DNA of 64,000 nucleotides from positions 65,496 through 129,495 of the forward strand of contig JAQUWH010000001.1 of NCBI GenBank assembly GCA_028692955.1. Reading direction: 5' to 3'. The stretch is from Clostridia bacterium (GTDB lineage: Bacteria > Bacillota > Clostridia > TANB77 > CAG-465). Below, one piece after another: positions 3,193 through 19,469 of this stretch (the stretch's first letter is position 1; every line of letters begins with the position of its first letter). Below the pieces are notes generated by a model. The model was not told the origin of the DNA. It ran no database searches and was given only the letters and a program-made list of their open reading frames with translations. Position numbers and translations under genes: made by a program.

Positions 3193-4053
3193 ATGAAGAC
3201 GTTAGAAATAACAAAAAAAATATTGAAGCAATATAATATTAGAGCTGATAAAAGATATGGGCAAAACTTTTTAATAGATGATAATATATTAGAAAATATT
3301 GTTGATGTGTCCAATATAACAGATGATGATTTAATTATAGAAATTGGGCCAGGACTAGGTAACTTAACTAGCTATTTATTAAATAGAGCTGGGCATGCAT
3401 TATTGATTGAAATTGACAATAAAATGATTGAAATTTTGAATAATAGATTTGATGGGGTAAATAACTATACTTTACTCAATCAAGATATATTAAAAGTAAA
3501 TATTGATGAATTAATAAATAATGTGGAAGAAAAGCTTAACAAAAAATTTAAAACAGTAAAAGTGGTAGCTAATTTACCATACTATATTACTACTCCAATT
3601 TTATTTAAATTATTACAAGAATCAGCTAGAGTATCTGAGATTATAATTATGGTACAAAAAGAAGTAGCTGAGAGAATGGTTGCAAGACCTAAAACTAAAG
3701 ATTATGGTATTTTAACATTAATGGTAGAATATTTAGCGGTTGCAAGTATTGAATTTATTGTACCAAATAATAGTTTTATACCAGCTCCTGATGTGACATC
3801 TGCTATAATTAAATTAATAAAGAGCAAAAGATATAATGTCACAAATGAGGAGACACTATTTAAATTGATACATGCAAGTTTTGCACAACGTAGAAAAAAG
3901 ATGATAAATTCATTAGAATCAACTAGTTTCTTAGATATGTCAAAACATGATTTAGAAACCATTTTTCAAAAATGTGATTTATCATTAAATTCAAGAGCAG
4001 AAGAGTTAACAATCAATGATTATATAAAGATAATAGAAACAATAAAATTATAG
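3193..4053 (+). CDS. rsmA: 16S rRNA (adenine1518/1519-N6)-dimethyltransferase
   Basis: Classic KsgA N-terminus (RADKRYGQNFLID) and SAM-binding motif (IEIGPGLGNLT). Confidence 0.9.
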   Translation: MKTLEITKKILKQYNIRADKRYGQNFLIDDNILENIVDVSNITDDDLIIEIGPGLGNLTSYLLNRAGHALLIEIDNKMIEILNNRFDGVNNYTLLNQDILKVNIDELINNVEEKLNKKFKTVKVVANLPYYITTPILFKLLQESARVSEIIIMVQKEVAERMVARPKTKDYGILTLMVEYLAVASIEFIVPNNSFIPAPDVTSAIIKLIKSKRYNVTNEETLFKLIHASFAQRRKKMINSLESTSFLDMSKHDLETIFQKCDLSLNSRAEELTINDYIKIIETIKL

Positions 4054-4079
4054 GATTACTATAATTTTATTGTTTCTAT

Positions 4080-4304
4080 TTAATTATTTAGGAAATTAAG
4101 ATTTTGGTTAGCCATATCCTCGACAGCTGTGTTAATTCTAAATTTTGCATCATCATTTTTAGTATTATTTTGTATATAACTTTTAATCATATTTTTAGTA
4201 TTAGAATCTAGATTTGCAAAATAAGATAATGCTTTTTGATTCATACCGATAGATAAACTAAAACCAACTGGCATTTCAAGTTCATTATTTTCCACATTAG
4301 TCAC
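4080..4304 (-). CDS. Small hypothetical protein (74 aa)
   Basis: ORF only. No motif recognised. Confidence 0.35.
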   Translation of the reverse strand: MTNVENNELEMPVGFSLSIGMNQKALSYFANLDSNTKNMIKSYIQNNTKNDDAKFRINTAVEDMANQNLNFLNN

Positions 4305-4408
4305 CTCTGTTATTATTATGTCACAATCATAAAAAAATATGATATAAATAAACTATCTATACAAAAAAAGAAGAATATGATATAATTTTTGTATGAATAA
4401 GGTGAATT

Positions 4409-5668
4409 ATGGAAGATTGCAATGAAGCTAAAAGATTAGAGAAAAATATAAAAATTTATAAAAAATACAAAATGTTTTCTTATGATTTTGTATTCTATTA
4501 TGCTATCTTTGTGATATATTTCACAACAGTAAAAAACTTTAGTATGTCACAAGTAATGTATTTTAATGGGTTTTATACTTTTTTCGTATTTTTCTGGCAA
4601 ATGTTTGGAAATTTAATATTAGAAAAGATAAAAATAAAGAAAAGTATTGTGTTAGGTAATGTATTAGTAGCTTTACAAGCTCTTATTTATATATTTGGTA
4701 ATTATTTTAGTACATTGATATTTGCCGAATGCATAGGCGCCTTGGGATTTACACTTAAAAGTTTATCGGAAGGAACTTTACTTTACACATCGTTAAAGCA
4801 TACTGGAAAAAGAAAAGAGTTTACTAAAATAGAAGGAAAGGCAAACTCAAAATATTATTATTATGATGCAATTGCTTCCATATTATCTGGTCTATTATTT
4901 CTCGTAAGTCCATATTTGCCAATTATACTATGCTTTATCAATACTTTAATTAGTTTAGTGATGTCATTAAAATTTTCAGATATAGAAGAGAAGAATAAAG
5001 AAAGATATTCTGTAAAAGAAATAGTGAAAGATTTTAAAACTGTAATAAAAAAACAACGTGTTAAGTCCATTATTTTGTTTTCCTTTGTGTTTTCAGGTGT
5101 AATAGCAGTTAGTACTACATTATATAAAGCGATTATATTAGAAATGGGAGTAGGAGTCGAACTCAATTCAGTTATTATATGTATTTGTACGATATTTGTA
5201 GGAATTGGAGCAAAGCAGCTATTTTTTCTTGAAGCGAAAACAAAAAATAGAACATTAACATTCTTTGCTGCTATTTATACTGTGGCACTGCTTTCCATTG
5301 GATTTATTAGCCATTATTGTGGGTTAAATATACCTGTGACAATTGTTATGATAACATTACTGATAATCATTGGTTTAATTCAAGGGGCCTACAGGGTTGC
5401 CATCAAAAAATATGTATTAAATTTTACTACCAGTAAGGTTAGAACTAAAATAACATCTATTTATTATATGGCTGAAAATATAGGCTCGACGATTATGTTA
5501 TTTTTAATAGGAATATTACTTAATTATACAACTAGTGCAATGGCATGTATCTTATTTTCTGTTATTAGTGGGATGATTTTACTTTTTATACTATTATATA
5601 TTAAAAATAAACTTGGCTTAAAACCAGAGGAATATGACGCAGAAGAAATTAATAATACATTGATTTAA
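4409..5668 (+). CDS. Polytopic membrane transporter, MFS-like, about 12 TM segments. The start may be at the downstream Met.
   Basis: Alternating hydrophobic helices through the whole length. Followed by a terminator hairpin. Confidence 0.55.
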   Translation: MEDCNEAKRLEKNIKIYKKYKMFSYDFVFYYAIFVIYFTTVKNFSMSQVMYFNGFYTFFVFFWQMFGNLILEKIKIKKSIVLGNVLVALQALIYIFGNYFSTLIFAECIGALGFTLKSLSEGTLLYTSLKHTGKRKEFTKIEGKANSKYYYYDAIASILSGLLFLVSPYLPIILCFINTLISLVMSLKFSDIEEKNKERYSVKEIVKDFKTVIKKQRVKSIILFSFVFSGVIAVSTTLYKAIILEMGVGVELNSVIICICTIFVGIGAKQLFFLEAKTKNRTLTFFAAIYTVALLSIGFISHYCGLNIPVTIVMITLLIIIGLIQGAYRVAIKKYVLNFTTSKVRTKITSIYYMAENIGSTIMLFLIGILLNYTTSAMACILFSVISGMILLFILLYIKNKLGLKPEEYDAEEINNTLI

Positions 5669-5671
5669 TGA

Positions 5672-5704
5672 GTGACCAAAACCAGTATTTTGGTCACTTT
5701 TTGG
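5672..5704 (+). terminator. Intrinsic terminator after the transporter gene
   Basis: gtgaccaaaaccagtattttggtcac followed by ttttt. Confidence 0.55.
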
Positions 5705-5789
5705 TTTTATTCATTATTGACATTTATATCTTTTTGTATTATACTTAACATATCTTTAAGGGATTAAAGATATTTAGCGAGGAGTTTAT

Positions 5790-6815
5790 ATGGGAAATAT
5801 TAATTATTTATTCAAAAGAATTAAAAGTATGAATTTTTCTAATATGGTTGATACAGCAAAACAAGTGCATCAAGAAACGGGAAAGAACACAGCGCGTATA
5901 TTGTTTGATATAGTTTATTGTGGGTACAAATATATGGCTGGATTTGTTGATTATAAAGTGTTTAAAATGTATCTTTTAAACAAAGAGCAAAGGGCTACTT
6001 ATATTACTAGAGGAGTCAATAATAATTACGTTAAATTGTTAAACGACCCTGAAGCAATGAAAAAAGTGGATAATAAATTAGAGTTTAATAAAATTTATAG
6101 TGAGTTTATCAAAAGAGATTGGATATCTTTAACAGAAGTTAGTTACGAAGAGTTCGAAATGTTTTTTAAAAAGCACAAAGATATTATTGTAAAACCAGTC
6201 GATGAGATGTGTGGCAAAGGAGTTGCAAAAATAACTCTTAAAGAAGACACTGACATTAAGGTAGTATATGATGAATTAATTAAAAACAATCAAATTTTAA
6301 TTGAAGAATGTGTGAAACAAAATAATGAAATTGCAAAACTTAATCCATCTTCTGTTAATACACTAAGGGTGGTAACGTTAAAAAAGGAAAATGAAGTAAA
6401 GGTTTTATTTACTGCACTTAGAATTGGAAATGGAAAATCAGTAGATAATTTTAATAATGGAGGAATGTTTACGGTTGTTAATGAAGACGGAACGATCACA
6501 AAACCAGCCATTAGCAAAGATGGAACAGTATATACAGAGCATCCTCTAACCCATGAAAAAATAGTTGGGTTTAAGTTGCCAAATTTTGATATTGCGTTAG
6601 ATACAGCAAAAAAATGTGCTTCACAAATCGAAAAAGTAAGATATATCGGATTTGATGTGGTGATTACAGAAGATGATGCCCTTATTTTGGAAGCTAATCC
6701 GTTTCCTGGTCATGATTTATATCAATCTGTTGCACATTTAGATGAGGACTTACAAGGATTGAAACCTAGATTTGATAAAGAAATATTTGGAAATAAAAAG
6801 GAAGAAGTGAAATAA
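5790..6815 (+). CDS. ATP-grasp amide ligase of the sugar-transfer-associated (alpha-L-glutamate-ligase-related) type
   Basis: Domain order and motifs resemble the ATPgrasp_ST family (VKPVDEMCGKGVAKI ... IEECVKQNNE ... GFDVVITEDDALILEANPFPG). Has its own promoter-like TTGACA/TATTAT upstream. Confidence 0.6.
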   Translation: MGNINYLFKRIKSMNFSNMVDTAKQVHQETGKNTARILFDIVYCGYKYMAGFVDYKVFKMYLLNKEQRATYITRGVNNNYVKLLNDPEAMKKVDNKLEFNKIYSEFIKRDWISLTEVSYEEFEMFFKKHKDIIVKPVDEMCGKGVAKITLKEDTDIKVVYDELIKNNQILIEECVKQNNEIAKLNPSSVNTLRVVTLKKENEVKVLFTALRIGNGKSVDNFNNGGMFTVVNEDGTITKPAISKDGTVYTEHPLTHEKIVGFKLPNFDIALDTAKKCASQIEKVRYIGFDVVITEDDALILEANPFPGHDLYQSVAHLDEDLQGLKPRFDKEIFGNKKEEVK

Positions 6816-7609
6816 TGAAAGAAGAAAATGCAAATATAGAACTTGATGAAATATCAAGAGTTGAAAATAAAACGCTAGGAAATAATATACAAAAAGAGGA
6901 TATTTATACAAAATTTTCTCCTAATGATACAAAGGGACTTGTTATTAAAGTGGAAGGTGACTCTTACGAAAGATTTCCGATTAAAGTACCAGTTATCATG
7001 TCCGGTGACGACATCTATTCAATTATTAATGAACATGTAAGAGATTTTTTACAAGAAGGGGATATGATTTTTGTAAGTGAGAAAATAGTTGCTATTTCAC
7101 AAGGCAGAGCTTTTAAAATATCAGATATTAAACCTTCTAGACTTGCAAACTTTTTACAAAAATTTGTTCATAAGTCTGATGTAGGCATTGGTCTTGGAAG
7201 TCCTCACACTATGGAACTTGCAATTAGAGAATTAGGTAGAATTAGAATTTTATTTGCTGCAGGAATTGCGGCTATTACAAAACCGTTTGGTATTAAAGGA
7301 GCCTTTTACGTAATATGTGGACCAAAAGCACAAGCAATTGATGGCCCTTGTAGTTATACAATACCACCATATAATCATTATGCAAAACTTGCTCCAAAGG
7401 ACCCAGATAAAGTAGCAAAAAAATTAAAAGAAATAACTGGTGCTAAAGATGTAGTGATTATAGATGCTAACGATATAGGAGTTAATGTATTAGGAAAATC
7501 AGATAAAAAATTAAAAAATAAAATATTAGCTGCTATCTTTAAAGATAATCCATTAGGCCAAACAAACGAACAAACTCCACTTGCTATTGTGAGAAAAATT
7601 AACGAATAA
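6815..7609 (+). CDS. CofE-like (F420-0:gamma-glutamyl ligase fold) protein. Its start overlaps the ATP-grasp stop.
   Basis: CofE-type motifs FVSEKIVAISQGRA and VVIIDANDIGVNVLGKS. Translationally coupled (ATGA overlap). Confidence 0.55.
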   Translation: MKEENANIELDEISRVENKTLGNNIQKEDIYTKFSPNDTKGLVIKVEGDSYERFPIKVPVIMSGDDIYSIINEHVRDFLQEGDMIFVSEKIVAISQGRAFKISDIKPSRLANFLQKFVHKSDVGIGLGSPHTMELAIRELGRIRILFAAGIAAITKPFGIKGAFYVICGPKAQAIDGPCSYTIPPYNHYAKLAPKDPDKVAKKLKEITGAKDVVIIDANDIGVNVLGKSDKKLKNKILAAIFKDNPLGQTNEQTPLAIVRKINE

Positions 7610-7654
7610 TACAAAAACGAGATAGAAAATATTAAAAATACTTGGGAATAACCA

Positions 7655-7698
7655 AACCAACCAATTAATTTAATTTAAATTAATTGGTTGGTTTTTTC
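7655..7698 (+). terminator. Intrinsic terminator with a perfect 16-bp stem
   Basis: aaccaaccaattaatt ... aattaattggttggtt followed by tttttt. Confidence 0.7.
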
Positions 7699-7822
7699 TT
7701 AAAATATAACTTATATTAACGCTATAACTCCTAAAAGAGGCGCAGTTTTATAGCGGCATAACAAAATTAAAACAAGAAAATCAACTCGATTGAAAAAATG
7801 GAGTTGATATCAATATTTTAAT

Positions 7823-7898
7823 TGGAGCTGAAAGTCCGATTTGAACGGACGACCTGCTGTTTACAAGACAGCTGCTCTACCAACTGAGCTATTCCAGC
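7823..7898 (-). tRNA. tRNA-Thr (anticodon UGU), last gene of a three-tRNA operon
   Basis: Reverse complement folds as a cloverleaf: acceptor gctggaa, anticodon stem gctgt/acagc, loop cttgtaa, T-loop ttcaaat, encoded CCA. Confidence 0.7.
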
Positions 7899-7904
7899 AA
7901 ATGA

Positions 7905-7979
7905 TGGTGACCCGTGGGAGAATCGAACTCCCCACTCCGCCGTGAAAGGGCGGTGTCTTAACCGATTGACCAACGGGCC
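7905..7979 (-). tRNA. tRNA-Glu (anticodon UUC)
   Basis: Reverse complement ggcccgttggtcaatcggttaagacaccgccctttcacggcgg... Anticodon loop ctttcac. Encoded CCA. Confidence 0.8.
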
Positions 7980-8008
7980 ATATACATATCCCGATTAGTC
8001 AGTTTATC

Positions 8009-8084
8009 TGGTGAGCCATCGCAGATTCGAACTGCGGACAACTTGATTAAAAGTCAAGTGCTCTGCCAACTGAGCTAATGGCCC
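8009..8084 (-). tRNA. tRNA-Lys (anticodon UUU)
   Basis: Reverse complement gggccattagctcagttggcagagcacttgacttttaatcaag... Anticodon loop cttttaa. Encoded CCA. Confidence 0.8.
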
Positions 8085-8119: not shown

Positions 8120-8148
8120 ATAATACTATATTTTTTGAATGTTGTCAA
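8120..8148 (-). promoter_or_regulatory. Promoter of the tRNA operon
   Basis: On the minus strand: TTGACA (8143-8148), 17 nt, TATTAT (8120-8125). Confidence 0.5.
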
Positions 8149-8320
8149 TACTTTTTGAGATATTTGTGTAAAAAATGTGAAAATATATCATTCTGTATTA
8201 TTTTAAAATGCAACTTTTTTTATGTCGAATAGGGTCTACTTTCAGCTAACTATGTCGAAACGTTCTAAAAATATTGACACCTTTTATTGAAAATGCTAAA
8301 ATTGTGTTAGGTGAAAGGAA

Positions 8321-10135
8321 ATGTTTATTCTAATTGATTTTATTTTCTTAGTATTGTTTTTTTCAATTAAGTTATATTCTTGTGCAGACACTCACTTTTT
8401 ATTTCAAGAATCAGGAGCCAAATTAGAGAAATATATAAAGAAGAATGATTTGCAAAATATAACGGACAACTTAGTACATCATAAATTTAAATTTTTTTCA
8501 AAGTTTCAAAAAAAATTTCAATCGCCTATTAATATAAAGCAAGCTTTTATTAGCTTGCTTATTGGAATAACGATGCTATTTGTTAAAATAGCATTTACAT
8601 ATAAATTTGCTTTATCTAATTTTTTTTATATTAACATGTTAGAGAAGAATATAGATGTGGCATCTATATTTTCACAGTATTTCATTATACTTAAAGTTTT
8701 ATATTATTTTCTATCTTTTTTTCTATATGTGAGCATTTCACATAAAATCTTAAAATATACACAGAAGCAAAAAAATCAAAAAAATTAATTCAGACAGATT
8801 TCAACCTTAAAATAGGAATAGACAAATCAGGTGAAAATATTTGTATCAAGGAAAATGGAGTGTATCAGAACATTTTGATTTCAGGAAGTATTGGCACAGG
8901 AAAAAACGAGTAGTGCCATTACTAATATATTAGATGAACTAATTCGTAAAAATATTTATGGATTGATTATTGATGTAAAAGGAAATTATATCAATAGCGT
9001 AGAAAAAGTGGCAAAAAAATATAACAAACAAGACTTGATTTATAAAGTTTCACTTGATAGCAATGTTTGCTATAATCCTTTAGACAAGGAAGATATTAGT
9101 ACTTTAGAACTTGCCAATAGAATGAAAAAAGTTTTACAAATTTTATCAGAGAAAAGCATTTCAGATTCTTTTTGGCTTGATAAAGCTGAAATGTATATTA
9201 GGGATTTCATTACCATTATTAAAGTATACAAAGAATATGTCAGTTTCTCAGAATTACACAAGATTATTACTAGTTATGAATACTTAAATGAAAAAATAGA
9301 GGAGGTTAAGAGAATTGTACTTGCCAATAAACTAGATGATGAAACGTTATTTAATGTTAATTCTGCAATCTATAATATAAAAAATGAATACTTAAAATTA
9401 GATGATAGAACTATTAACATTATTAGGGCAGAAATAACCAGAATTACTAATTTGTTTGTGAGTGACTATACTATTTTCAGACAATTTTGCTCAAAAAATA
9501 ATCTCAAAGATTTCTATCATAAAATCACTGTACTATCTATTAATTATGGTGAAAATAAATATTTAGCAAAAGTTATTTCTACTTATTTAAAGCTAGATTT
9601 TCAATCTCAAGTATTATCTCAAAAAAACAATTTTATTCCTATATTTTTTATCTGTGATGAATTTCAAGAATATGCTAATGTTGAAGATTCTAATTTTTTT
9701 TCGTTATCTAGAGAGTATAAATGTATCAATGTAGTGAGCATGCAAAGTTATTCTTCACTATTACATACTATTAAAGATAAGGATGCTGTTAATGTTATAT
9801 TACAAAATCTAGTAAATAAAATTTGGTTTAGAAATGATGATAATTACACGATAAGCGAAATTATTAAGCAGTTGGGAAAAGAAGAAAAAGAGACGGATGC
9901 TGTAAGCTATTCTGAGAGTAATCAAAATGTAAGATATAGCCTTTTTAGTAATAAATTTAAAAATTATAATAGTGGATTATCAAAGACATATTCGCTTAAT
10001 AAGAGGATTGATTACAAATATACAGAAGATTATTTTTCCATGGGCCTTTGCAACTTTGAATGTGCTTGTTTATTATCTGATGGAAATGCCATGACGTTTT
10101 ATGAAAAAATATTTTTAAAAAGATGGGAGGGATAA
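8321..10135 (+). pseudogene. VirD4/TraG/TcpA-like type IV coupling protein (T4CP) broken by two +/-1 frameshifts inside A-homopolymer runs
   Basis: Frame 2 ORF (TM-rich N-terminus) stops at 8786-8788 in the tract aaaaaaatcaaaaaaatt. Frame 1 then continues ...FNLKIGIDKSGENICIKENGVYQNILISGSIGTGKNE and stops in the tract ggaaaaaacgag. Frame 2 resumes TSSAITNILDELIRKNIYGLIIDVKGNY...CYNPLDKED. Joining the three pieces restores Walker A GSIGTGKTSS plus the T4CP signature motifs. Confidence 0.65.
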
Positions 10136-10137
10136 AA

Positions 10138-10470
10138 ATGAAACAATTAACAAAAAATCAAAAAAACAAGATAGTGATATTCTTATTTATCATTTTTGTA
10201 GTAGGCAACCATATATTTGCCGCTACTGATCCAACACTGGTAAATAAACTAGGAACTGTTTTTAAAAGAATATTGTCTTATTTGAAAACACTGGCCACTC
10301 CAGCAGCTGGGGTAGCAATAGCAAGCGGAATTATGTTTAGGAAGTTTAGTTTTGGTGATGAAGAAAAAATGATAAAAGGAAAGAAAATAATTATTAATGC
10401 TATTATCTGTTATGCAATGATACTCTCTATCGATCTCATTACTAAATTTATTGAGGCGGTTGTTAAATAA
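10138..10470 (+). CDS. Small secreted or membrane protein, possibly a conjugative pilin-like (VirB2/TrbC-like) component
   Basis: Signal-peptide-like N-terminus, central hydrophobic block ATPAAGVAIASGIMF, second TM near the C-terminus. Sits immediately after the T4CP. Confidence 0.35.
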   Translation: MKQLTKNQKNKIVIFLFIIFVVGNHIFAATDPTLVNKLGTVFKRILSYLKTLATPAAGVAIASGIMFRKFSFGDEEKMIKGKKIIINAIICYAMILSIDLITKFIEAVVK

Positions 10471-11312
10471 TGGTGGCAAATGATATTATCAATAATCTAA
10501 ATAATGTACTGGAAAAGTTATTCAAGTCAATAGAAGGGACCATTTTTCAAACAATAGATAGCTTGATTTCAATAGGCCCTGATATATTACAAAAAGAACC
10601 ACTAAATAACATTATTTTTGATAATAAAATGAATGGACTTATTTTAATTGCGAATGTTTTAGTCATATTTTTTATTGCACATTATATATTTAAACAATTG
10701 ATTAGCATTTATAACGGTAATAAAATAGAGAGTATCTATTTATTTATCATTAGAGTGATTATTGTCTTAATTATTGTCAACTCAAGCTATTTTATATGTA
10801 AAGAAATATTGAATATATTTGATGTTTTGAGTGATACCATAGATGTCTATGCTACAGATACCATAAAAAAAGAAATAACCTTTGAAAATTTAAAAAATAA
10901 CATTACCAATATAGAAGATATTATGAATAGTGATTTAATTAGCTTAGATGGGATTATAAAAGGTATAGTTTCATTTGGCTCTGTTTCAATCTTAATTAAC
11001 TTTTCAGTTAGATACGCAACTGTTCTTTTTTTAATTATTATATCCCCTTTTGCATTTGTAAGTTTAGCCAGCAATTTGACAAGTGGAATTTTCAGTACGT
11101 GGGCAAAAATATTAGTCTTAAATTTATCTACCACTATAGTGATAAAACTATTAATATTTATTCCACTAGCTTTTCATGATCAAAGAAGTATCATGTATAA
11201 GATTATTTTAGTAGGCGTAATATCATTAATCTATAAATTTAATGTTTTTATAAAAGAAATATTAGCTAGAATATCAAGTGAAAGTAATGTAAAAAACATA
11301 TTTAGGGAATAA
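10470..11312 (+). CDS. Polytopic membrane protein, VirB6/TrbL-like by architecture (T4SS channel component)
   Basis: At least five TM helices. Its start overlaps the stop of the preceding gene. Lies between T4CP and a VirB3-like gene. Confidence 0.35.
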   Translation: MVANDIINNLNNVLEKLFKSIEGTIFQTIDSLISIGPDILQKEPLNNIIFDNKMNGLILIANVLVIFFIAHYIFKQLISIYNGNKIESIYLFIIRVIIVLIIVNSSYFICKEILNIFDVLSDTIDVYATDTIKKEITFENLKNNITNIEDIMNSDLISLDGIIKGIVSFGSVSILINFSVRYATVLFLIIISPFAFVSLASNLTSGIFSTWAKILVLNLSTTIVIKLLIFIPLAFHDQRSIMYKIILVGVISLIYKFNVFIKEILARISSESNVKNIFRE

Positions 11313-11315
11313 AAA

Positions 11316-11639
11316 ATGGAAAAGATTAAGAATTATTATAACTTTAAAAGAGAAAATAAGTGGCTTGGAATAATAGACTATAAAACACTACTGTTGCTTT
11401 TATTCTATATAGCAGTTATCGTGTTATTATTAAAAAATATAAATATTAAATTGGAATATCTTGTTTATATATTTATCACCTTAACGTTGCCAGTTTTTAT
11501 TATTGTATTTATAAATATTGGAAATGAAAGTGTGTATGATGTAATTATTGTTTTGCTAAAATATTATATAAAAAGAAAAATCTATGTAAAGGGGAGATAC
11601 ATAAGGAGTCTGAAGGACGAAATTTATAAAAAAATGTAA
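11316..11639 (+). CDS. Small two-TM protein, VirB3/PrgI/TcpE-like
   Basis: 107 aa with two adjacent hydrophobic helices and a basic tail. Confidence 0.35.
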   Translation: MEKIKNYYNFKRENKWLGIIDYKTLLLLLFYIAVIVLLLKNINIKLEYLVYIFITLTLPVFIIVFINIGNESVYDVIIVLLKYYIKRKIYVKGRYIRSLKDEIYKKM

Positions 11640-11747
11640 GAAAAAAAATAAAGCTTGTGTCTATTTTTGTCGAAAAACCGAATATATTTTGAAATTTTAA
11701 AGTTTTATGTTAAAATAGATGCTATAAATGAATGAGGGGGATAGCAC

Positions 11748-12194
11748 ATGAAAAGGGGAAGAATTATCTTAATGATAGTAAGTGTTTTATTACTTGCAGG
11801 ATTTATTATTGAAATTGTATTCTTCTTAAGATGGTCAAGTTATAGGTCATCAGGAGACAAAAAAGTATCGAATGAATCATACCTTGAACGCTATTATAAA
11901 ATTGTTCAAATAACGGCCAAACAAGATAATATTTTACATGAATATACTATTATAACAACGAAAGAAGGAAAAGTAATAGATACAAGAATAGTAAAAACGG
12001 GTTATACCACAGATAAATTAGTAGAAGAGTGTAACACGTTAAGAAAATCTGAAGATGTGATATATAACTTGATAGAGGGAGAGAATGATATAAAGTATAA
12101 TTCCAGTGGCGATAATGGGAAACAAGTAGACGATGTGGTAAAAGATTATCAAAATAATGAAGCTTTCAAAGTAGTTACTATTAGGAAAATTTAA
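11748..12194 (+). CDS. N-terminally anchored small protein, paralog A
   Basis: One TM then a soluble domain. Clearly paralogous to the next ORF (YKIVQITAKQDNILHEYTIITTKEGKVIDTRIVKTGYT versus YHVFQITSKENGILSEYFAITTKEGAARDT...RIIESGYS). Confidence 0.5.
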   Translation: MKRGRIILMIVSVLLLAGFIIEIVFFLRWSSYRSSGDKKVSNESYLERYYKIVQITAKQDNILHEYTIITTKEGKVIDTRIVKTGYTTDKLVEECNTLRKSEDVIYNLIEGENDIKYNSSGDNGKQVDDVVKDYQNNEAFKVVTIRKI

Positions 12195-12216
12195 TAAGGA
12201 AGGAGTATATAATGTT

Positions 12217-12666
12217 ATGAAAAAAGACAAGAACCTACTGATTTTTCTCACTATTTTAATCTTTTTGATTATATTATTTAGTGCTTTATTCTATTATCAG
12301 TGGAAGAATGTTCAATATAGCGAAGTAACAGTTCAAGATTTTAGTAAACAATATGGATATCATGTATTTCAGATTACAAGTAAAGAAAATGGAATTTTAA
12401 GTGAATATTTTGCCATTACTACTAAAGAAGGTGCAGCTAGGGATACTATAGTATTGGATACAAGAATCATAGAAAGTGGTTATTCAGGAGAAAAATCGAG
12501 TGAAAGATATGAACTACTGAATAACTTTCATGGCATAGTATATAACGTGACGAAAACAGAAGGAACAATCTCATATAATACTTCAGTTAATAATGGGAAA
12601 TCAGTATATGAATTAATAAATGCAAGGAAAAATTATTGTAAAGATGTAGTGGTAAAAGAAAATTAG
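12217..12666 (+). CDS. N-terminally anchored small protein, paralog B
   Basis: Tandem duplicate of the previous gene. A terminator hairpin (gattcctagac...gtctaggaatc tttt) follows. Confidence 0.5.
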   Translation: MKKDKNLLIFLTILIFLIILFSALFYYQWKNVQYSEVTVQDFSKQYGYHVFQITSKENGILSEYFAITTKEGAARDTIVLDTRIIESGYSGEKSSERYELLNNFHGIVYNVTKTEGTISYNTSVNNGKSVYELINARKNYCKDVVVKEN

Positions 12667-12751
12667 ACAAAAGAGATTCCTAGACAAAAGTCTAGGAATC
12701 TTTTGGTATGGAGATAATAACTTATTTAATTGAAGAGGTTTTCTTCAATTT

Positions 12752-13195
12752 TTATGCGTCTCTAAGTAAAACACTGACAGCACCTGCTCCGGGTGAACTA
12801 ACATAAACGGTGTATGTACCAGCAACACTGTTGTTAATACGTTGGACTACCTGCCGACCGGGTGCGACCTGAATTACGGTGTCTGGAAAACAGTTCTTGC
12901 CATTTGGAGAAATAATCTGTACGTATGCCACAGCTGTTGAGGACTCAGCATTGTAGATAACTGCTTCTCCATATAAACTCCAACCAGGAGAATTGATAGT
13001 GAAGCTAGCAGCTCCGTTGAAATAAACACTTCCCATTCCACTGATGGCTCTTGTATTTGGAACCATAAGTTCTTGTGTTGCTAGAGCATCAGAAGCGACA
13101 GGAAGTTCCGTAGCATAGGAAGGAACAGCAAGTGTAAAACACATTGCAATTACCAACAGGAAAGATAGAATCTTTTTGCGGGAAAATTTTTTCAT
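12752..13195 (-). CDS. Secreted Gly/Ala/Val/Ser/Pro-rich beta-type protein with signal peptide
   Basis: Signal peptide MKKFSRKKILSFLLVIAMCFTLAVPSYA. The CDS has much higher GC than its flanks. Promoter and RBS look host-like. Confidence 0.55.
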   Translation of the reverse strand: MKKFSRKKILSFLLVIAMCFTLAVPSYATELPVASDALATQELMVPNTRAISGMGSVYFNGAASFTINSPGWSLYGEAVIYNAESSTAVAYVQIISPNGKNCFPDTVIQVAPGRQVVQRINNSVAGTYTVYVSSPGAGAVSVLLRDA

Positions 13196-13500
13196 TTTAA
13201 TATCTCCTTCATTTTTGATAATTTTATTATACTCTCCACACCCTTAATTTTAAAAATATGCTTTACGTAATTGATAAGCATATTATATATCGTATCTACA
13301 AAAAAACAATAAATGTGCCAAAATACTACTTTTTTCGACAAAACTAGACATGCTGACAACAGCATTATACAATTTAGCAAAATTAATTCCACTACTATTG
13401 ACGTAAAAATAGCAAAAATAAAATGATTAATAAATCAAACGTATTGTAAAAGAATCAAACTAATGATATAATCATAACATATATTTTAGGAGCGTTTTTT

Positions 13501-14463
13501 ATGAAATTTTTACAGAAGAATAAAATGGAATTATGTGATACTCAAGTGGCTGATTTGTTCATTTTAAATAACATGTTTAGTTTAGAGGCAATAGATATTA
13601 AATTATATCTATATATGCTTTTTTTGTCTAAAAATCAAACTGAAATAGATAAAGCAAATTTAGCAAAAAAACTATGTGTAACAGAACAAGAAATGGGTTT
13701 TGCTTTAGATAGACTACAAGCTGAGGAACTTATTATTAAAACAACTCAAGGTTTTATCATTGCGGACTTAAAAGAAAATGAAATTAATAAGACATATATT
13801 CCGAAGTTAGAACCTAAAATCAATAGAATTCAATCGGAATTAGAGAGAAAGAGAATTGCCGCTGCTGAAGCTATCAATGAATCATTTTTCCAAGGAATCA
13901 TGTCTCTTGGTTGGTATACGGATATTGGCACTTTATTTAAAAATTATAGTTTTTCTGAAGAGGTGATGATTGCATTATTTCACTATTGTCAAGAAAGAAA
14001 TGCTCTTAATAAAAAATATGTATATGCTGTTGCTGAAAATTGGTATAATGGCGGAGTTAAAACGTTTGAACAGTTGGAAGAGTTTTTAGAAAGTTATGAT
14101 TGCTTACAAAAAATAAAACAAAAGATTGTAAAGGCGTTAAGATTAAATAGAAATATTACTAAATATGAAGAACAATATATTAATACGTGGGTGAAGGATT
14201 ATAATTATGATTTTACAATGATAGAGGAAGCGTTAAAGAGAACAGTAACGATTGCCAATCCAACCATTAGCTATATTAATGGTATATTAAATAATTGGCA
14301 CAAAAAGGGCTATAAGACGGTAAAAGATATAGAATCAGATGTCAAAACTCATGATGATAAGGCAAAGCAATATAATAAGAATACAGTAAAAGAAAAAAAC
14401 AAATTTCAAAATTATGAGCAGAGAAGTTATACTGATTTAGAATCATTTTATGATAACATGTGA
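13501..14463 (+). CDS. DnaD-domain replication initiation/helicase-loader accessory protein (DnaD/DnaB_2 family)
   Basis: C-terminal DnaD-like motif YINGILNNWHKKGYKTVKDIE. Upstream TTGTAA-17-TATAAT promoter. Confidence 0.65.
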   Translation: MKFLQKNKMELCDTQVADLFILNNMFSLEAIDIKLYLYMLFLSKNQTEIDKANLAKKLCVTEQEMGFALDRLQAEELIIKTTQGFIIADLKENEINKTYIPKLEPKINRIQSELERKRIAAAEAINESFFQGIMSLGWYTDIGTLFKNYSFSEEVMIALFHYCQERNALNKKYVYAVAENWYNGGVKTFEQLEEFLESYDCLQKIKQKIVKALRLNRNITKYEEQYINTWVKDYNYDFTMIEEALKRTVTIANPTISYINGILNNWHKKGYKTVKDIESDVKTHDDKAKQYNKNTVKEKNKFQNYEQRSYTDLESFYDNM

Positions 14464-14480
14464 TGGGAGGAGGATGTTTT

Positions 14481-15500
14481 ATGGATAATGAAGCATATCT
14501 AAAAGTAAAAAAAGAGTACGACAATAAAAGAGAGAATAAAATAGCTAAAGCTGAAGAAATAAAAAAACAAATTTATATAGAACATCCAAAACTACGTGAG
14601 TTAGAAACGCAGAGGAATTTACTAGCTATAAAAATTACAAAAGAAATGCTATATTCTGATGAGCTAAATAAGCAAATTGCTCAAGATAATATGCAACTCA
14701 ATTTAGAAAATATAGATAAGAAGATAGAAAGAGAATTAAAAGAAGCTCATATAACAAAGTTTGATTTAGAACCAAAATTCGATTGTCAGGATTGCAAAGA
14801 TACGGGATTGATTGTTAATAATGGAAACACTGAATATTGTTCATGTTTTTTACAAAAAGTAATTAATGAAACATATAAACAAACTAACATTGCAAAGTTA
14901 GATGAAGAAAATTTTGAAACGTTTGATTTAGGATTTTATTCTAATAATGTAAATTTTGAAAAATATGGAATTGGTACATCCCCAAGGCAAAATATAGAAA
15001 AAATAAAAAATATCGCTTTAGAGTTTGTAGATAATGTGGATAATCCACAGCAAAAAAATCTGTTGTTTGTGGGAAATACCGGACTGGGTAAAACATTTTT
15101 AGCAAATGCTATTGCAAAAAAAATATTGGATCATTCAAAATCTGTTATTTACCAGACAGCACCAATTTTTATGGATAAAATAATGGAATTTAAATTTTCA
15201 CAAGGAAGTGATAAATCACAGTATTATAAAATATTTGATGTCGATTTATTAATTATTGATGATCTTGGTACAGAAACTATGACCAATAATAAATATACAG
15301 AATTATTTAATATTATCAACACAAGACTATTAAATAATAAGAAAATATTGATTTCTACTAATTTAACATTAAATGAATTATATGAAAGATATGACGAAAG
15401 AGTTATCTCTCGATTAATCGGTGAATTTAGAATTTGTAAATTTATTGGTGATGATATTAGATTAAAGAAAAAAAGAATTAGTAGTGATAAAAATATATGA
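14481..15500 (+). CDS. DnaI/DnaC-like helicase-loader ATPase with N-terminal zinc-binding module
   Basis: Cys cluster CQDCKDTG...CSCF. Walker A GNTGLGKTFLANAIA. Walker B LLIIDDLGTE. RBS gggaggagg 7 nt before the ATG. Confidence 0.7.
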   Translation: MDNEAYLKVKKEYDNKRENKIAKAEEIKKQIYIEHPKLRELETQRNLLAIKITKEMLYSDELNKQIAQDNMQLNLENIDKKIERELKEAHITKFDLEPKFDCQDCKDTGLIVNNGNTEYCSCFLQKVINETYKQTNIAKLDEENFETFDLGFYSNNVNFEKYGIGTSPRQNIEKIKNIALEFVDNVDNPQQKNLLFVGNTGLGKTFLANAIAKKILDHSKSVIYQTAPIFMDKIMEFKFSQGSDKSQYYKIFDVDLLIIDDLGTETMTNNKYTELFNIINTRLLNNKKILISTNLTLNELYERYDERVISRLIGEFRICKFIGDDIRLKKKRISSDKNI

Positions 15501-15548: not shown

Positions 15549-16550
15549 TTATATTTCAAAATCCGATTTGTCTGGAAATATATACGCTAAAGAATTATTT
15601 ATTTCATTTTGAGCTTTTACAAAATCTTTCAAAGGATAAGAATCGTTAATGCATATCATGTTATATTTTTGGTTTTTAATCGTTTTTATTAATCTTGTAT
15701 TATCATCTAAAACAGTAAAGTATTTACCATTCATTATGGTAGGGATAAATTTGCCATTAAATAAATTAAAATATCTAAAAATGCCTTGCCCTAAATCAGT
15801 ATTACTCCTAAATTTATTTTCACATGCTATATCAAGTATTTTATATTCTTGTTCCCATACCTTAAAGAAAGTACTTTTTAAACAGGGCTGTGATAAATGT
15901 AAGGATAATATATCATTAAATTGATACATACTAAAGTATCTTATTGTTTTTAAATTATGAAAACCATATTTTATATTCAAAATTTTAAAAAAATTATTTT
16001 TTAGGAAAGTTGTTTTATTAAAATGTTTTGCTAATACATTGTTATAATTTTTTCTCAAAATACTATGTCTTTTACTACAGTTTTTCTTAATATACTCCAC
16101 GTAAAAATCTTTAGGCAAATCTTTATAAAAGAAATCAGTTTCTTTTAAATGATTTAGTATAAAAATATCGTCATTTAATAAGATAAATTGTTCTGATAAA
16201 TCTTTTATTCTATGTAGGTTAGTTTCAATTACATTGGAATTAAAAGTTGGTAAATATTTTTTTGGTATAAATTCATCATGACGAATAATTCTGATTTTTT
16301 GATTATTAGTATTAAGCCATGATGGAATATGACCCCAGGTTACAAAGAAAATATGATGTATCCAACTTGCGTATTTTTCTATGCCTCTAAATAAATATTG
16401 TAGATTATTAAAATCTCTAAATCTATTAATAGATGAATCTCCCTTAACATTTGAATAGTTGTTTTTTTCTTTTATCCACTCTGGGTCATTGCCATCTACC
16501 CATAATATTACTGCATCTATTTTATTTGAATATTTCATATTGTTTACCAT
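15549..16550 (-). CDS. Stealth-family (CR1-CR4) hexose-1-phosphoryltransferase, paralog 2
   Basis: Stealth motif ILWVDGNDPEW, plus FFVTWGHIP and LLNDDIF. Confidence 0.65.
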   Translation of the reverse strand: MVNNMKYSNKIDAVILWVDGNDPEWIKEKNNYSNVKGDSSINRFRDFNNLQYLFRGIEKYASWIHHIFFVTWGHIPSWLNTNNQKIRIIRHDEFIPKKYLPTFNSNVIETNLHRIKDLSEQFILLNDDIFILNHLKETDFFYKDLPKDFYVEYIKKNCSKRHSILRKNYNNVLAKHFNKTTFLKNNFFKILNIKYGFHNLKTIRYFSMYQFNDILSLHLSQPCLKSTFFKVWEQEYKILDIACENKFRSNTDLGQGIFRYFNLFNGKFIPTIMNGKYFTVLDDNTRLIKTIKNQKYNMICINDSYPLKDFVKAQNEINNSLAYIFPDKSDFEI

Positions 16551-17566
16551 CAGGTTTCAAATTCCGACTTATCTGGCAATATTTCCGCAAAGACTTGATT
16601 TATTTCATTTTTTACTTTGTGGAAATCGATATTAACATAGGCATCATTAATACAAATCATCTTATATTTGTGTGTCTTTAAAGCACTTATTAAATCGTCA
16701 TTGTTGTTATTATACACAAAATATTTAGTTTCATCTTTTTTTGGTATAAATTTTCCGCTAACCATTTGCCAATACCTACATAAATAATGGCCTAAATCGG
16801 TTGATTGTCTAAATTTATTATGACACGCCAAATCAAGATTTTCTCCTTCTTTTTCCCAAACTTCTAAAAATGTTTTTTTCAAATAAGGTTGTGGCGCATG
16901 AAAATTCCAAAAACCACAAAATTTCTTTTTAATAGAAAGATATTTTAAAGTCCTAAAATTAAATTTGCCATATTTGTAATTTATCATTTTAAAAAAATTT
17001 TTCTTAATTAATTCCTTTTTGTTAAAATATTTATTGATAATAGCTAATATATTTGCTTTCATAAAAAAATGAATATCATTATAAAAAGAAGCTACTTGTA
17101 TATTTTCAACATAAACATCTGTTGGTAAATTATTTATAAAAAAATCAGAGGGATTCGTATCTTTTAATAAAAACAAATCATCATTAAGAAGAACAAAATG
17201 CTCCGATAAATCTTTTATTCTATGTAAATTTAATTCGATGACATTTGAATTAAAAGTGGGCAAATATTCATTTGGTATAAAATCTTCATGGCGCACAATT
17301 TTAATCTTTTTATTCTTTGTATTAAGCCATGGTGGAATGTGTCCCCAAGTTACAAAGAATATATTGTTTACCCAATTAGCATATTTTTCGATGCTCCTAA
17401 ATAGATAATGTAAATTTTCACAATCTCTGAAACGATTTTCTTGCTGATCTCCGCCTCTATGAGAATGCATGTTTTTTTCATTTATCCATTCTGGATCATT
17501 ACCATCTACCCATAGTATTACAAAGTCTATTTTATCAATGCTTTTACTAGATTTTTCCATGGTCAT
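16550..17566 (-). CDS. Stealth-family (CR1-CR4) hexose-1-phosphoryltransferase, paralog 1
   Basis: Same motifs as the neighbour. Highly similar along the whole length. Its stop and the next gene's start share one nucleotide. Confidence 0.65.
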   Translation of the reverse strand: MTMEKSSKSIDKIDFVILWVDGNDPEWINEKNMHSHRGGDQQENRFRDCENLHYLFRSIEKYANWVNNIFFVTWGHIPPWLNTKNKKIKIVRHEDFIPNEYLPTFNSNVIELNLHRIKDLSEHFVLLNDDLFLLKDTNPSDFFINNLPTDVYVENIQVASFYNDIHFFMKANILAIINKYFNKKELIKKNFFKMINYKYGKFNFRTLKYLSIKKKFCGFWNFHAPQPYLKKTFLEVWEKEGENLDLACHNKFRQSTDLGHYLCRYWQMVSGKFIPKKDETKYFVYNNNNDDLISALKTHKYKMICINDAYVNIDFHKVKNEINQVFAEILPDKSEFET

Positions 17567-17771
17567 CCTCCTTATGCACTACATAATTATACAATATTAA
17601 AAAAGTTTTGTCAACATTCACCAAAGACACTACTACTACTATTGGATTAATAACTCTCTCTTTGAAAATTTAATTAATAGAAATTAGTTTATGAAATTAT
17701 TTTTTTAAATTTATTTTTCCTCCATATTATTTAGTGATTTGCATATAATAATTAGTAGGGAGGAAAAATTC

Positions 17772-18506
17772 ATGCTAACTTTAAAAATTTATGGCAATTA
17801 TTCGCCCAATACAATTGGACTTCCGGGTTCGTGTTATTTATTGGAAGGAATGAGTAAAAAGATAATATTTGATTTAGGGAATGGAAACTTTAAAAAAATA
17901 AAAAAAGATTTAAGTGAAGACGATTTAGAGAATTCTTTACTTATTTTGTCACATAATCATGTAGATCATTCATGGGATGTTCTTAAATTAGCTCTCTATC
18001 TCATGAAAAAAAGTAAAAAAATAAATATATATTTGCCAAAAAAAAGTTTTATTTATTGGATTATAGCTCATTTAAATAAAGTTTTTAATGTACATATTAT
18101 AACAGAAGAAACAAAAATTAATATTGATAATTTCAATATAAGTTTTTGCAAAACAATTCATAGGGGAGAATCTTATGCAACTAAAATAGTAGGAGAAGAT
18201 ATTGATTTTGTTTATACATCTGATATGGCAGATGTCTCAAAAAACGTTAAGATGTTTTGTAAAGATGCAAATGTTGTACTAGTAGATTCTGGTCATCCGT
18301 GTAAGGATGAACTATTTTCATTAAATGGCTATCATGGAAAAACAACTGATATATTAAATCAATTATTCGATAGCGAGTGTAATGTGAAAAAAGTGTTGGC
18401 CTCACATTTGAAAGCAAATTTAAGACCTGAGGCATATATGTTAGCTTTTCCGCCTAATAAGGATGTGATTTTAGTACGAAGAGGCAAAATATATAATTTA
18501 ATATGA
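17772..18506 (+). CDS. MBL-fold metallo-hydrolase
   Basis: HxHxDH motif (SHNHVDHSWD). RBS gggagg 8 nt upstream of the ATG at 17772. Confidence 0.6.
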   Translation: MLTLKIYGNYSPNTIGLPGSCYLLEGMSKKIIFDLGNGNFKKIKKDLSEDDLENSLLILSHNHVDHSWDVLKLALYLMKKSKKINIYLPKKSFIYWIIAHLNKVFNVHIITEETKINIDNFNISFCKTIHRGESYATKIVGEDIDFVYTSDMADVSKNVKMFCKDANVVLVDSGHPCKDELFSLNGYHGKTTDILNQLFDSECNVKKVLASHLKANLRPEAYMLAFPPNKDVILVRRGKIYNLI

Positions 18507-18533
18507 AAAAGGCGATGCTTGTACACCGTCTTT

Positions 18534-19469
18534 TTAATCCTCTACATATTTACTTTCATCACGTTTTTTCTCTATTTTTAAGATTTGCTCATATAATTTT
18601 TCTTCACGTTCGGAAATATTACTTGGTAAATCGATATGTACCTTTAAGATTAAATCTCCTCTTATACCATCTTCAGAAATATACCCTTTTTGGGGAACAT
18701 TAACGAGTTCCCCATCTCTTACGTGCCTTGGTAGTGTTACAATTAATTTTTCGTCAAATATTTGTAATTTGATTTTGCCACCAATCGCAGCAATAGATGG
18801 TGAGACAGTGATTTTTTTGATAAGATTTACACCATCTAGTTTATAGTTGTCATCATCTAATAATTTAACATGTATAATCAAGTCACCATTTTTGCCATCG
18901 TTCTTACCTGGGTTTCCTAGCGCCGCCAAACGTATTTTATCGCCACTTTGAATTCCAATAGGAACATTGACAGAGAAAGTTTGCATACCCGATTTGAATG
19001 ATTTTATTGCAATTTTTTTCTCAACGCCGAAAAAACCCTCCTCTAAAGTCACATCTAAATGTGTTATAATATCAGTACCTTTAATTGGTTTTAGTTTTTC
19101 TTTTTTATCACTTCTACTATCGACACTAAAATTGTTATCATCTTTTCTAAATCCTAGTATGGTTGTGAATAGATCATTGATTACATTTACGCCGGATTTT
19201 ATCTCATATTTTACATTGGAAAGACTAGAATCATTTTCAGTAAAGCCATAACCAAGCCTTGCTACTTGCCTATCATATCTTTTTCTTTTTTCTTCATTGG
19301 TAAGTGTTGCATAAGCTTCATTTACGTCTTTAAACATACTTTCGGCTTCATCAGATTTATTCGTATCAGGATGATATAATTTTGCAAGCTTTCTATATGA
19401 CAATTTTATTTCTTGGATTGAACTTTTTCTTGTAACTTCTAATATTTCATAATAGTTTTTATATTTCAT
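18534..19469 (-). CDS. DnaJ-domain co-chaperone (J domain plus DnaJ C-terminal domain, no zinc-finger module)
   Basis: J domain YYEILEV...LAKLYHPDTN...NEAYATLT...KRKRYD. Confidence 0.7.
   Translation of the reverse strand: MKYKNYYEILEVTRKSSIQEIKLSYRKLAKLYHPDTNKSDEAESMFKDVNEAYATLTNEEKRKRYDRQVARLGYGFTENDSSLSNVKYEIKSGVNVINDLFTTILGFRKDDNNFSVDSRSDKKEKLKPIKGTDIITHLDVTLEEGFFGVEKKIAIKSFKSGMQTFSVNVPIGIQSGDKIRLAALGNPGKNDGKNGDLIIHVKLLDDDNYKLDGVNLIKKITVSPSIAAIGGKIKLQIFDEKLIVTLPRHVRDGELVNVPQKGYISEDGIRGDLILKVHIDLPSNISEREEKLYEQILKIEKKRDESKYVED

Follow-up and report, generated by a model that had tools for sequence, protein, structure and literature searches.

A conserved VirB4-less gene block related to type IV secretion systems, with putative Spo0A boxes, beside a tRNA operon in uncultured Clostridia

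Genes that resemble parts of a type IV secretion system (T4SS) and lie next to a tRNA operon raise the question of whether they are debris of a mobile element or a module that the host lineage has kept. The question is posed here by four genes at 8321-11639 in a stretch of 64,000 nucleotides from a Clostridia bacterium (contig JAQUWH010000001.1; the whole stretch is called the window below), which encode, in this order, a type IV coupling protein (T4CP)-type ATPase, a pilin-like protein, a VirB6/TrbL-like protein and a PrgI/VirB3-like protein. A preliminary description, made from the sequence alone, had taken the region for a degenerate remnant of an integrative and conjugative element (ICE) or plasmid transfer module within an accessory island. 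Derivation of the block from a T4SS is upheld here and narrowed to a Gram-positive-type system, whereas the part of that claim that saw a decaying remnant is not upheld. It is considered fairly probable that the block is an anciently domesticated, chromosomally fixed, VirB4-less and T4CP-driven T4SS derivative of four genes, probably under Spo0A control. No description of this four-gene operon was found in literature searches.

The four genes and their products

The window is low-GC DNA (~27 %) in which long open reading frames (ORFs) are clean in translation table 11. GC content across the four-gene block is 0.24-0.30, similar to that of the flanks, with no compositional step. The block consists of the following genes.

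8321-10135, + strand: T4CP (VirD4/TraD-like) ATPase gene, frameshifted, in pieces 8321-8788 and 8891-10135
10123-10470, + strand: VirB2/TrbC-type T4SS pilin-like protein with a signal peptide and two hydrophobic helices, overlapping the T4CP stop codon and the next start codon
10470-11312, + strand: VirB6/TrbL-like polytopic membrane protein, 280 amino acids (aa)
11316-11639, + strand: PrgI/VirB3-like protein with two transmembrane (TM) helices, 107 aa

The broken T4CP of the preliminary description proved to be one gene split by two 1-base frameshifts. Its pieces are collinear with an intact 606-aa orthologue, end to end over 606 residues and at 67 % identity (tblastn), and the C-terminal piece matches PF10412 TrwB_AAD_bind (2.6e-11) and PF12696 TraG-D_C (8.2e-9), both above the cut-off. 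Among the orthologues PF10412 is found in 21/21 and PF12696 in 20/21, with an additional weak FtsK_SpoIIIE match in two; a PDB sequence search with the T4CP profile gave a marginal match to DotL only.

Assignment of the three small membrane proteins to VirB2-, VirB6- and VirB3-like roles likewise held, through profile matches in the protein itself or in its orthologues and through structural matches to TrwI/VirB6, with the VirB3/PrgI matches sub-threshold. The pilin-like protein matches PF18895 T4SS_pilin (31.1 bits against a cut-off of 26.6), and its orthologues match both PF04956 TrbC and PF18895. The window VirB6-like protein itself has no Pfam match; of its relatives, P0052 matches PF19597 TrbL_4 (34 bits, cut-off 27) and P0262 matches PF19590 TrbL_3. 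An AlphaFold model of the VirB6-like protein has a predicted local distance difference test score (pLDDT) of 73.8, and its top five Foldseek matches in the PDB are all R388 TrwI/VirB6, with probabilities of 0.98-1.0 but a TM-score of only ~0.35. Orthologues of the PrgI-like protein match PF12666 PrgI in 10/23 cases (best E 1.5e-4) and PF05101 VirB3 in 2/23, all at sub-threshold E-values, and share the motif YxNYKRxNKWLGIIDYKSL; the window copy has no Pfam match, its one match being a weak one to the N-terminal end of NF045975 VirB4_plasma.

Overlapping stop and start codons link the T4CP, pilin-like and VirB6-like genes. These overlaps, together with one strong promoter-like site ahead of the block and a terminator hairpin after the genes that follow it, suggest that the four genes are co-transcribed and translationally coupled as an operon. 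Descent from a Gram-positive-type T4SS is indicated by the order VirB6 then VirB3, the PF18895 pilin and the T4CP. In pCF10 the gene order is prgH-prgI, which the order in the block matches.

Of the products of the operon, the NCBI annotation names the T4CP fragment only. The VirB6-like protein is 100 % identical to 'MAG: hypothetical protein PHP54_00455 [Clostridia bacterium]', and because the locus tags jump from PHP54_00455 to PHP54_00460 (a 148-aa protein downstream), the PrgI-like ORF at 11316-11639 is apparently absent from that annotation. Labels such as 'ICE remnant' and 'hypothetical protein' are misleading here.

Conservation, synteny and selection

Related loci, numbered here with the prefix L, were recovered by searching with the VirB6-like gene itself, and all are from metagenome-assembled genomes (MAGs) or metagenome contigs. 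A scan of one genome per GTDB species yielded 30 loci, including those of Clostridium sp. CAG:465 and CAG:921, and four further loci came from metagenomes. In essentially all 30 species-level and four metagenome loci (tblastn) KsgA is followed by the tRNAs (-), T4CP-pilin-VirB6-PrgI, DnaD-DnaC, DnaJ(-) and GyrA, with VanW downstream. The same three tRNAs (Thr-Glu-Lys) stand upstream of the T4CP in 15 of the 17 loci checked. Relatives at 70 % and 50 % identity encode a T4CP of ~604-606 aa, a pilin of 111-114 aa, the 280-aa protein, a protein of 107-115 aa, DnaD, DnaC, DnaJ(-) and GyrA; in L005 the automatic T4CP gene call starts late, giving 523 aa. Conservation of the block with intact genes in related genomes had been named in the preliminary description as an outcome at odds with its reading, and this is largely what was found, the block occupying one and the same position in ~30 species-level genomes as well as in distant relatives.

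Median identities to the window are 54 % for the T4CP, 61 % for the pilin (27 loci), 52 % for the VirB6-like and 43 % for the PrgI-like protein; the comparison genes DnaC, KsgA and VanW give 57 %, 62 % and 53 %. Ratios of nonsynonymous to synonymous substitution (dN/dS, NG86) are 0.05-0.41 over all four genes in seven species pairs, with 0.05-0.24 for the VirB6-like gene. The four genes are under purifying selection. Intact T4CP orthologues of 592-651 aa in a single ORF are present in 25/29 loci, and the Walker A (GSIGSGKTSS) and Walker B (FFICDE) motifs are invariant among the orthologues.

The VirB6-like protein has 252 homologues, nearly all of ~280 aa and 50-73 % identity and all from MAGs or metagenomes, while a profile search of 1.8 billion representatives returned 578 relatives, mostly of 260-300 aa. 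Four distant relatives (E = 4e-45 to 1e-11) were looked up and each keeps at least part of the arrangement, which persists where VirB6 identity is only 25 %. L036 and L037 have T4CP-pilin-VirB6-like-(PrgI-like)-DnaD-DnaC, the cut contig of L041 has the VirB6-like gene, then a gene of 286 aa, then DnaD and DnaC, and the short contigs of L042 and L039 carry T4CP, pilin-like and VirB6-like genes. The distribution suggests that the four genes have been vertically inherited at one site in an uncultured, low-GC clade of spore-forming Clostridia.

Promoter region and Spo0A boxes

The region between the tRNA operon and the T4CP gene, and the intergenic regions downstream of the block, contain the following sites.

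8120-8148, - strand: tRNA operon promoter-like site TTGACA-17-TATTAT
8223-8229, + strand: distal perfect Spo0A box TGTCGAA, 98 bp upstream of the T4CP start codon (-98)
8253-8259, + strand: proximal perfect Spo0A box, at -68 from the ATG and 15 bp upstream of the -35 hexamer
8274-8302, + strand: sigma-A-type promoter-like site TTGACA-17-TGcTAAAAT with an extended -10, followed by the ribosome-binding site AGGTGA
11668-11674, + strand: perfect Spo0A box, 80 bp upstream of the first of two paralogous genes after the block
13334-13340, - strand: perfect Spo0A box, 139 bp upstream of a convergent secreted-protein gene

The tRNA operon and its promoter were located as the preliminary description had placed them, the promoter-like site running from 8148 to 8120. 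In an alignment (A5) of the tRNA-T4CP intergenic regions of 11 loci, with a mean column identity of 50 %, the hexamers of the tRNA promoter and the operon promoter-like site are both conserved, and the TGTCGAA columns upstream of the -35 hexamer are invariant or nearly so. The operon promoter-like site is also present in L005 and L028. Spacing between box and promoter is stable in the alignment, and that between box and tRNA varies from 93 to 387 bp. A perfect proximal box occurs in the window, L002-4, L006 and L007; the other loci have a degenerate (TGTnGAA-like) form.

Perfect boxes are concentrated at this position. Of 39 in 488.6 kb of sequence from 28 loci, 25 fall within the 5.04 kb upstream of T4CP starts, a 62-fold enrichment, and in 21/28 loci the T4CP start is preceded by a perfect box, the commonest position being near -98. 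The additional boxes downstream of the block also recur: in L002-L004 an equivalent of that at 11668-11674 precedes paralogue copy 3 by 90 bp, and that of the secreted-protein gene has its equivalent at 13878(-) in L003. Between 8.2 and 13.4 kb fall four of the six perfect boxes of the 64-kb window.

TGTCGAA is the Spo0A core motif in Bacillus and is bound also by C. difficile Spo0A, and in C. difficile perfect boxes within ~100 bp of the start codon predicted Spo0A binding (PMC3485338). By the same measure, the operon has a consensus 0A box within ~100 bp upstream, conserved among relatives. Sporulation genes are at hand, with SpoIID (equivalog, 304 bits) and SigK (292 bits) encoded in the window and GerA in L016. 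The operon is probably under Spo0A control. The position of the boxes, upstream of the -35 hexamer, would make activation likelier than repression.

The other two perfect boxes of the window, at 60990-60996 (+) and 61485-61491 (-), flank the region upstream of a SigK-like gene (61705-62403); the former lies inside a 266-aa ORF (60547-61347) that could not be annotated and the latter 220 bp upstream of sigK.

Frameshifts in the coupling protein gene

In the window copy of the T4CP gene the N-terminal TM part is read in frame 1 (8321 to ~8775), 40 Walker A-proximal codons follow in frame 3 (to 8904), and the ATPase/all-alpha/TraG-D_C part (8891-10135) is back in frame 1. The out-of-frame stretch carries the first half of Walker A (…NILISGSIGTGK). 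The upstream frameshift is a 1-base loss that can be placed only within 8750-8788, a stretch rich in A-runs; the downstream one adds an A to the Walker A codons GGA-AAA-AC (8901-8906), with A6 here and A5 in the orthologues. Apart from these two 1-base changes the gene has no other lesion over 1.8 kb. Genetic code 4 (Mollicutes) was considered as the cause of the break and rejected, since the breaks are frameshifts rather than TGA codons and the ORFs are clean in table 11.

Real and recent inactivation of the T4CP in this genome is favoured, with reasonable assurance, over an assembly error. The change from A5 to A6 in GGAAAAAC is exactly repeated in the independently built Logan contig L001, and none of the eight neighbouring genes shared with L002 is truncated, which argues against a general homopolymer-error problem; L021, moreover, has a frameshift in the same gene at another place. 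That both frameshifts are instead read or assembly errors at A-runs, the gene being intact and functional in the organism, is possible and deserves some weight without being the expected case. The second site lies in an A-run and the first is confined to a segment rich in them; the -1 and +1 shifts cancel in length and are 120 nt apart; and the three pieces, 67 % identical to an intact orthologue, carry no other stop or lesion. Additionally, the end of Logan contig L001 falls between the two sites, possibly owing to a branch in the graph.

The gene is interrupted in a few other MAGs as well. The single frameshift of L021 (L021 8400-8480) lies 15 codons past Walker A, and the T4CP genes of L022 and L034 have apparent stops in the N-terminal TM region; in all three loci the neighbouring genes look intact. 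Repeated loss, phase variation at A-runs and errors in the MAGs are all conceivable causes.

Missing secretion components and mobility hallmarks

As had been noted in the preliminary description, no VirB4, relaxase, cell-wall hydrolase or integrase was found in the block, and no VirB8-like protein was found there either. VirB4 (AAA_10, CagE_TrbE_VirB), relaxase and integrase were also not found among the family-scanned ORFs of the window, a scan that covered all ORFs of at least 400 aa and, outside ~39.7-57.6 kb, many smaller ones, nor within 10 kb in those related loci for which gene calls or large ORFs were inspected. When ORFs of at least 350 aa from 35 loci that were not otherwise accounted for were clustered and representatives scanned, they yielded MutS, MutL, HlyD, a recombinase, MetRS, GerA and others, and no VirB4. 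VirB4, VirB8, the hydrolase and the relaxase were lost from this site or never carried there.

No attachment site (att)-like direct repeats were found around the block, which adjoins the 5' (promoter) side of the tRNA operon and not a tRNA 3' end. The VirB6-like protein had no match among 72,556 plasmids and none in IMG/VR (profile scan), and the block T4CP had seven remote plasmid matches only, at 22-27 % identity. A second coupling protein is encoded in the window.

25435-27420, + strand: second T4CP, intact and canonical VirD4-like, of the CD1115 family (NF045973, 435 bits; PF02534, 7.7e-78)

This second T4CP matches 4,320 plasmid records at 31-38 % identity. It was considered as a paralogue of the block T4CP and rejected, there being no BLASTP similarity between the two. 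It is an orphan among housekeeping genes, in the order VanW, an unassigned 173-aa protein (p173; 24566-25087), the second T4CP, an unassigned 228-aa protein (27522-28208) and dnaX-ybaB-recR. L005 and L019 share the order VanW-p173-second T4CP, at 57 % identity, and four further loci have p173 after VanW. In L036, a relative of 25 % GC, an AAA_10/P-loop_TraG (VirB4-like) gene and two unassigned genes lie at 15884-19295 (-), ~7 kb downstream of the block and beyond an inverted gyrA; this VirB4-like protein has no homologue in the window.

Origin and possible function of the block

An exapted function of the block is suggested by its long vertical retention, purifying selection, invariant ATPase motifs, translational coupling and conserved operator. 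In such a scheme a membrane-anchored hexameric T4CP would power a minimal translocon in the cytoplasmic membrane with its VirB6- and VirB3-like partners, without a locally encoded VirB4, and Spo0A would switch operon expression at entry into stationary phase or sporulation. The translocon substrate would be DNA or protein. A more far-reaching version, put forward tentatively and with more doubt than confidence, is that a VirB4-less T4SS derivative was exapted as a Spo0A-controlled sporulation or stationary-phase translocon, maybe moving DNA or proteins across septal or forespore membranes; it would have been retained, beside the helicase-loading genes, throughout an uncultured order of gut Clostridia.

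Several observations weigh against a domesticated, Spo0A-controlled and VirB4-less module. To our knowledge every characterised T4SS has VirB4, and a working machine without it would be unprecedented. Disruption of the ATPase in the window and in L021, and maybe N-terminally in L022 and L034, could mean that its function is dispensable. Searches for VirB4 covered the window and the related loci within 10 kb rather than whole genomes. At L038 4971-9392 a pilin-like (108 aa)/VirB6-like (284 aa) pair stands without adjoining T4CP or DnaD/DnaC; it is directly followed by a Tad-like set (SAF/CpaB-like, AAA_31/TadZ-like and T2SSE/TadA-like), an adjacency that may be chance or another partnership of the gene pair. 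As to regulation, control by Spo0A rests on a motif, Spo0A itself not being seen in the window; with -35 and -10 hexamers this near to consensus, the operon promoter would have no evident need of an activator; the target of the boxes could instead be the divergent tRNA promoter; and 7/28 loci lack a perfect upstream box, as do the more distant L036 and L037. Additionally, PrgI/VirB3 proteins normally anchor VirB4 (10.1101/2025.01.22.634366), which counts against a module without VirB4 and in favour of a split system.

In a split system the four genes would be part of a complete T4SS whose VirB4, VirB8-like protein and hydrolase are encoded elsewhere, which the second T4CP at 25435-27420 may join and which would serve conjugation-like DNA export, DNA uptake or effector secretion. 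The conserved, intact CD1115-family VirD4-like gene 15 kb downstream, syntenic in L005, and the VirB4-like gene 7 kb from the block in L036 fit such an arrangement, which is nonetheless considered unlikely: no VirB4-like ORF was seen among the scanned window ORFs or within 10 kb in the related loci examined, the L036 protein is without a counterpart in the window, and T4SS genes are normally clustered. Far less probable still is a non-functional, decaying ICE or plasmid transfer remnant in an accessory island by the tRNA operon. A module lacking VirB4, relaxase, VirB8, hydrolase and integrase, with a T4CP frameshifted twice here and once in L021 and with a variable region (KilA-N, recombinase and rve fragments) bordering it in some relatives, would look like one. 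Decay is, however, hard to reconcile with identical synteny in ~30 species and beyond, with an ATPase intact in most loci and invariant in its catalytic motifs, with the dN/dS ratios given above, or with conservation of promoter and operator. Likewise, the block stands among housekeeping genes, has neither att repeats nor a GC anomaly, is without close relatives in plasmids or viruses and adjoins the tRNA operon on its 5' side, and the window T4CP has acquired no lesion beyond its two frameshifts.

Comparison with known systems

The closest known systems are the conjugative T4SSs of the MPF_FATA class (pCF10 Prg/Pcf, ICEBs1 Con and pCW3 Tcp). Shared with these are a T4CP that has TM helices at its N-terminus together with TrwB_AAD_bind/TraG-D_C domains, and proteins that resemble T4SS_pilin/TrbC, TrbL/VirB6 and, by sub-threshold matches, PrgI/VirB3. 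Unlike them, it has no VirB4 (PrgJ/ConE/TcpF), VirB8-like protein, peptidoglycan hydrolase, relaxase or origin of transfer (oriT) context, is fixed at one chromosomal site in many species with no detectable close plasmid relatives, and has Spo0A boxes in its promoter; it is by VirB4 and relaxase that it falls outside the class.

Conceptually, the closest analogue is the chromosomal monoderm-type T4SS found lineage-wide in the Patescibacteria (candidate phyla radiation, CPR), which are uncultured bacteria of reduced genome (bioRxiv 10.1101/2025.01.22.634366). Common to both are VirB6 and VirB2-like (PF18895) components and, putatively in the block, PrgI/VirB3, as well as the lack of a relaxase link and a position near replication genes. 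The Patescibacteria system is, however, defined by VirB4 (plus TrsD), whereas the block has a T4CP, no VirB4 nearby and a Spo0A-box promoter, and belongs to endospore-forming Clostridia.

The ComB DNA-uptake system of Helicobacter is an exapted chromosomal T4SS with a non-conjugative purpose, which keeps VirB4 (ComB4) and VirB7-10 homologues and is without a T4CP; the block is the reverse, a T4CP without VirB4. SpoIIIE/FtsK, Streptomyces TraB and SpoIIIA-SpoIIQ are membrane-anchored FtsK/HerA-superfamily ATPases or secretion-like complexes in sporulating bacteria, a functional analogy only: the block ATPase is a T4CP by Pfam and not PF01580, and SpoIIIA components are unrelated in sequence. 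Expression of SpoIIIA depends on sigma-E rather than on Spo0A boxes.

A Tad-type pilus cluster is conserved across the order TANB77 (PMC11680825). Like the block, it is clade-wide envelope machinery of uncultured, low-GC gut Clostridia, and its ~145-aa TM-anchored or secreted 'pilin-like' proteins with promoters of their own resemble, as described, the 148-, 149- and 147-aa accessory genes downstream of the block. Identity of the TANB77 'conserved pilin' cluster with this operon was considered and rejected, as that cluster is a different, Tad machine (CpaB/TadZ/TadA/TadBC) at another locus, with no T4CP, VirB6 or PrgI.

VirB4 is regarded as a hallmark common to all T4SSs, and the tools that detect them depend on it. 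If the preferred reading is true, a VirB4-less, T4CP-driven and chromosomally fixed module under purifying selection would escape such tools, and it would call into question whether homologues of VirB3, VirB6 and VirB2 work exclusively with VirB4, as is assumed. The conserved Spo0A boxes offer a testable link of a conjugation-derived machine to sporulation or entry into stationary phase. The carriers are abundant, uncultured gut Clostridia of reduced genome, possibly members of TANB77, a group that has been linked with the response to immunotherapy and whose conserved envelope structures already attract interest.

Neighbouring genes

The block is surrounded by both conserved and variable features.

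7823-8084, - strand: tRNA Lys(ttt)-Glu(ttc)-Thr(tgt) operon (ARAGORN and Rfam), divergent from the T4CP operon; conserved neighbour
11748-12194 and 12217-12666, + strand: two tandem paralogues of 148 and 149 aa, each with an N-terminal TM helix and an alpha/beta ectodomain of ~110 aa
12671-12704, no strand: hairpin with a 12-pair stem, between convergent genes
12752-13195, - strand: convergent secreted 147-aa protein with a signal-peptide-like N-terminus; local GC maximum of 0.36
13501-15500, + strand: DnaD/DnaB_2-domain protein (two DnaB_2 stretches) and DnaC/DnaI-like helicase loader
15549-17566, - strand: two tandem Stealth-family genes (CR1, CR2, CR4), between DnaC and a metallo-beta-lactamase (MBL)-fold gene

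Among related loci only the paralogues, the secreted-protein gene and the Stealth genes are variable. The two tandem anchored proteins were rightly described as paralogous, sharing 34 % identity and the N-terminal TM helix, and they are confined to the window and its nearest relatives, in 2-4 copies (four in L002-4). A homologue search with the 148-aa paralogue returned the query itself only. The VirB8/NTF2-like role proposed for them found no support: six paralogue proteins gave no Pfam match and no VirB8 or TcpC match, and a two-sequence AlphaFold model is poor (pLDDT 57.7), with the order TM-alpha-beta3-alpha-alpha-beta against the classical NTF2 order alpha3-beta4. The hairpin that follows is likely a bidirectional terminator closing the operon.

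The last gene was correctly seen as convergent, GC-rich and encoding a secreted protein. A homologue was found by tblastn in L003 only among L001-L035, at 46 % identity, and in L002 and L004 its slot is occupied by an rve fragment. The paralogues and the secreted protein appear to be young, lineage-specific additions with Spo0A boxes of their own.

The DnaD/DnaI pair, which had been thought possibly to belong to the accessory island, lies directly downstream of the block in nearly all loci, with identities of 52-89 % (DnaD) and 48-81 % (DnaC), and a DnaD promoter-like site at 13444-13472 is conserved in L005 and L028. The DnaC-like loader matches PRK06835 (324 bits, cut-off 215). Both genes are best read as core genes rather than island cargo, and we take them to be the clostridial helicase-loading pair. 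For the Stealth genes, tentatively placed in the same island, an accessory nature held and the association with the block did not: they have no homologue in any related locus, where MBL or DnaJ stands directly after DnaC, and they appear to be an insertion specific to this genome, with no relation to the T4SS-like operon. Beside ksgA, at 2051-3130, lies the gene of an SLT/G5 protein, a conserved neighbour of housekeeping type.

The DNA immediately upstream of the tRNA operon and T4CP promoter, themselves conserved, is a variable spot among relatives. L002 and L003 carry VanZ, acetyltransferase and KilA-N genes at 3945-7200, beyond the tRNA operon, and L006 has a large serine recombinase at 4952-6832. 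In L008 a split dehydrogenase-like gene, identified from reading the sequence only, lies between the tRNAs and the T4CP (6725-7703).

An Rfam scan of 7-16 kb found nothing beyond the three tRNAs. Between the F420-ligase-like gene and tRNA-Thr, at 7654-7694, lies a perfect 20+20-nt AT-rich palindrome (AAACCAACCAATTAATTTAA / TTAAATTAATTGGTTGGTTT), which may be a shared terminator.

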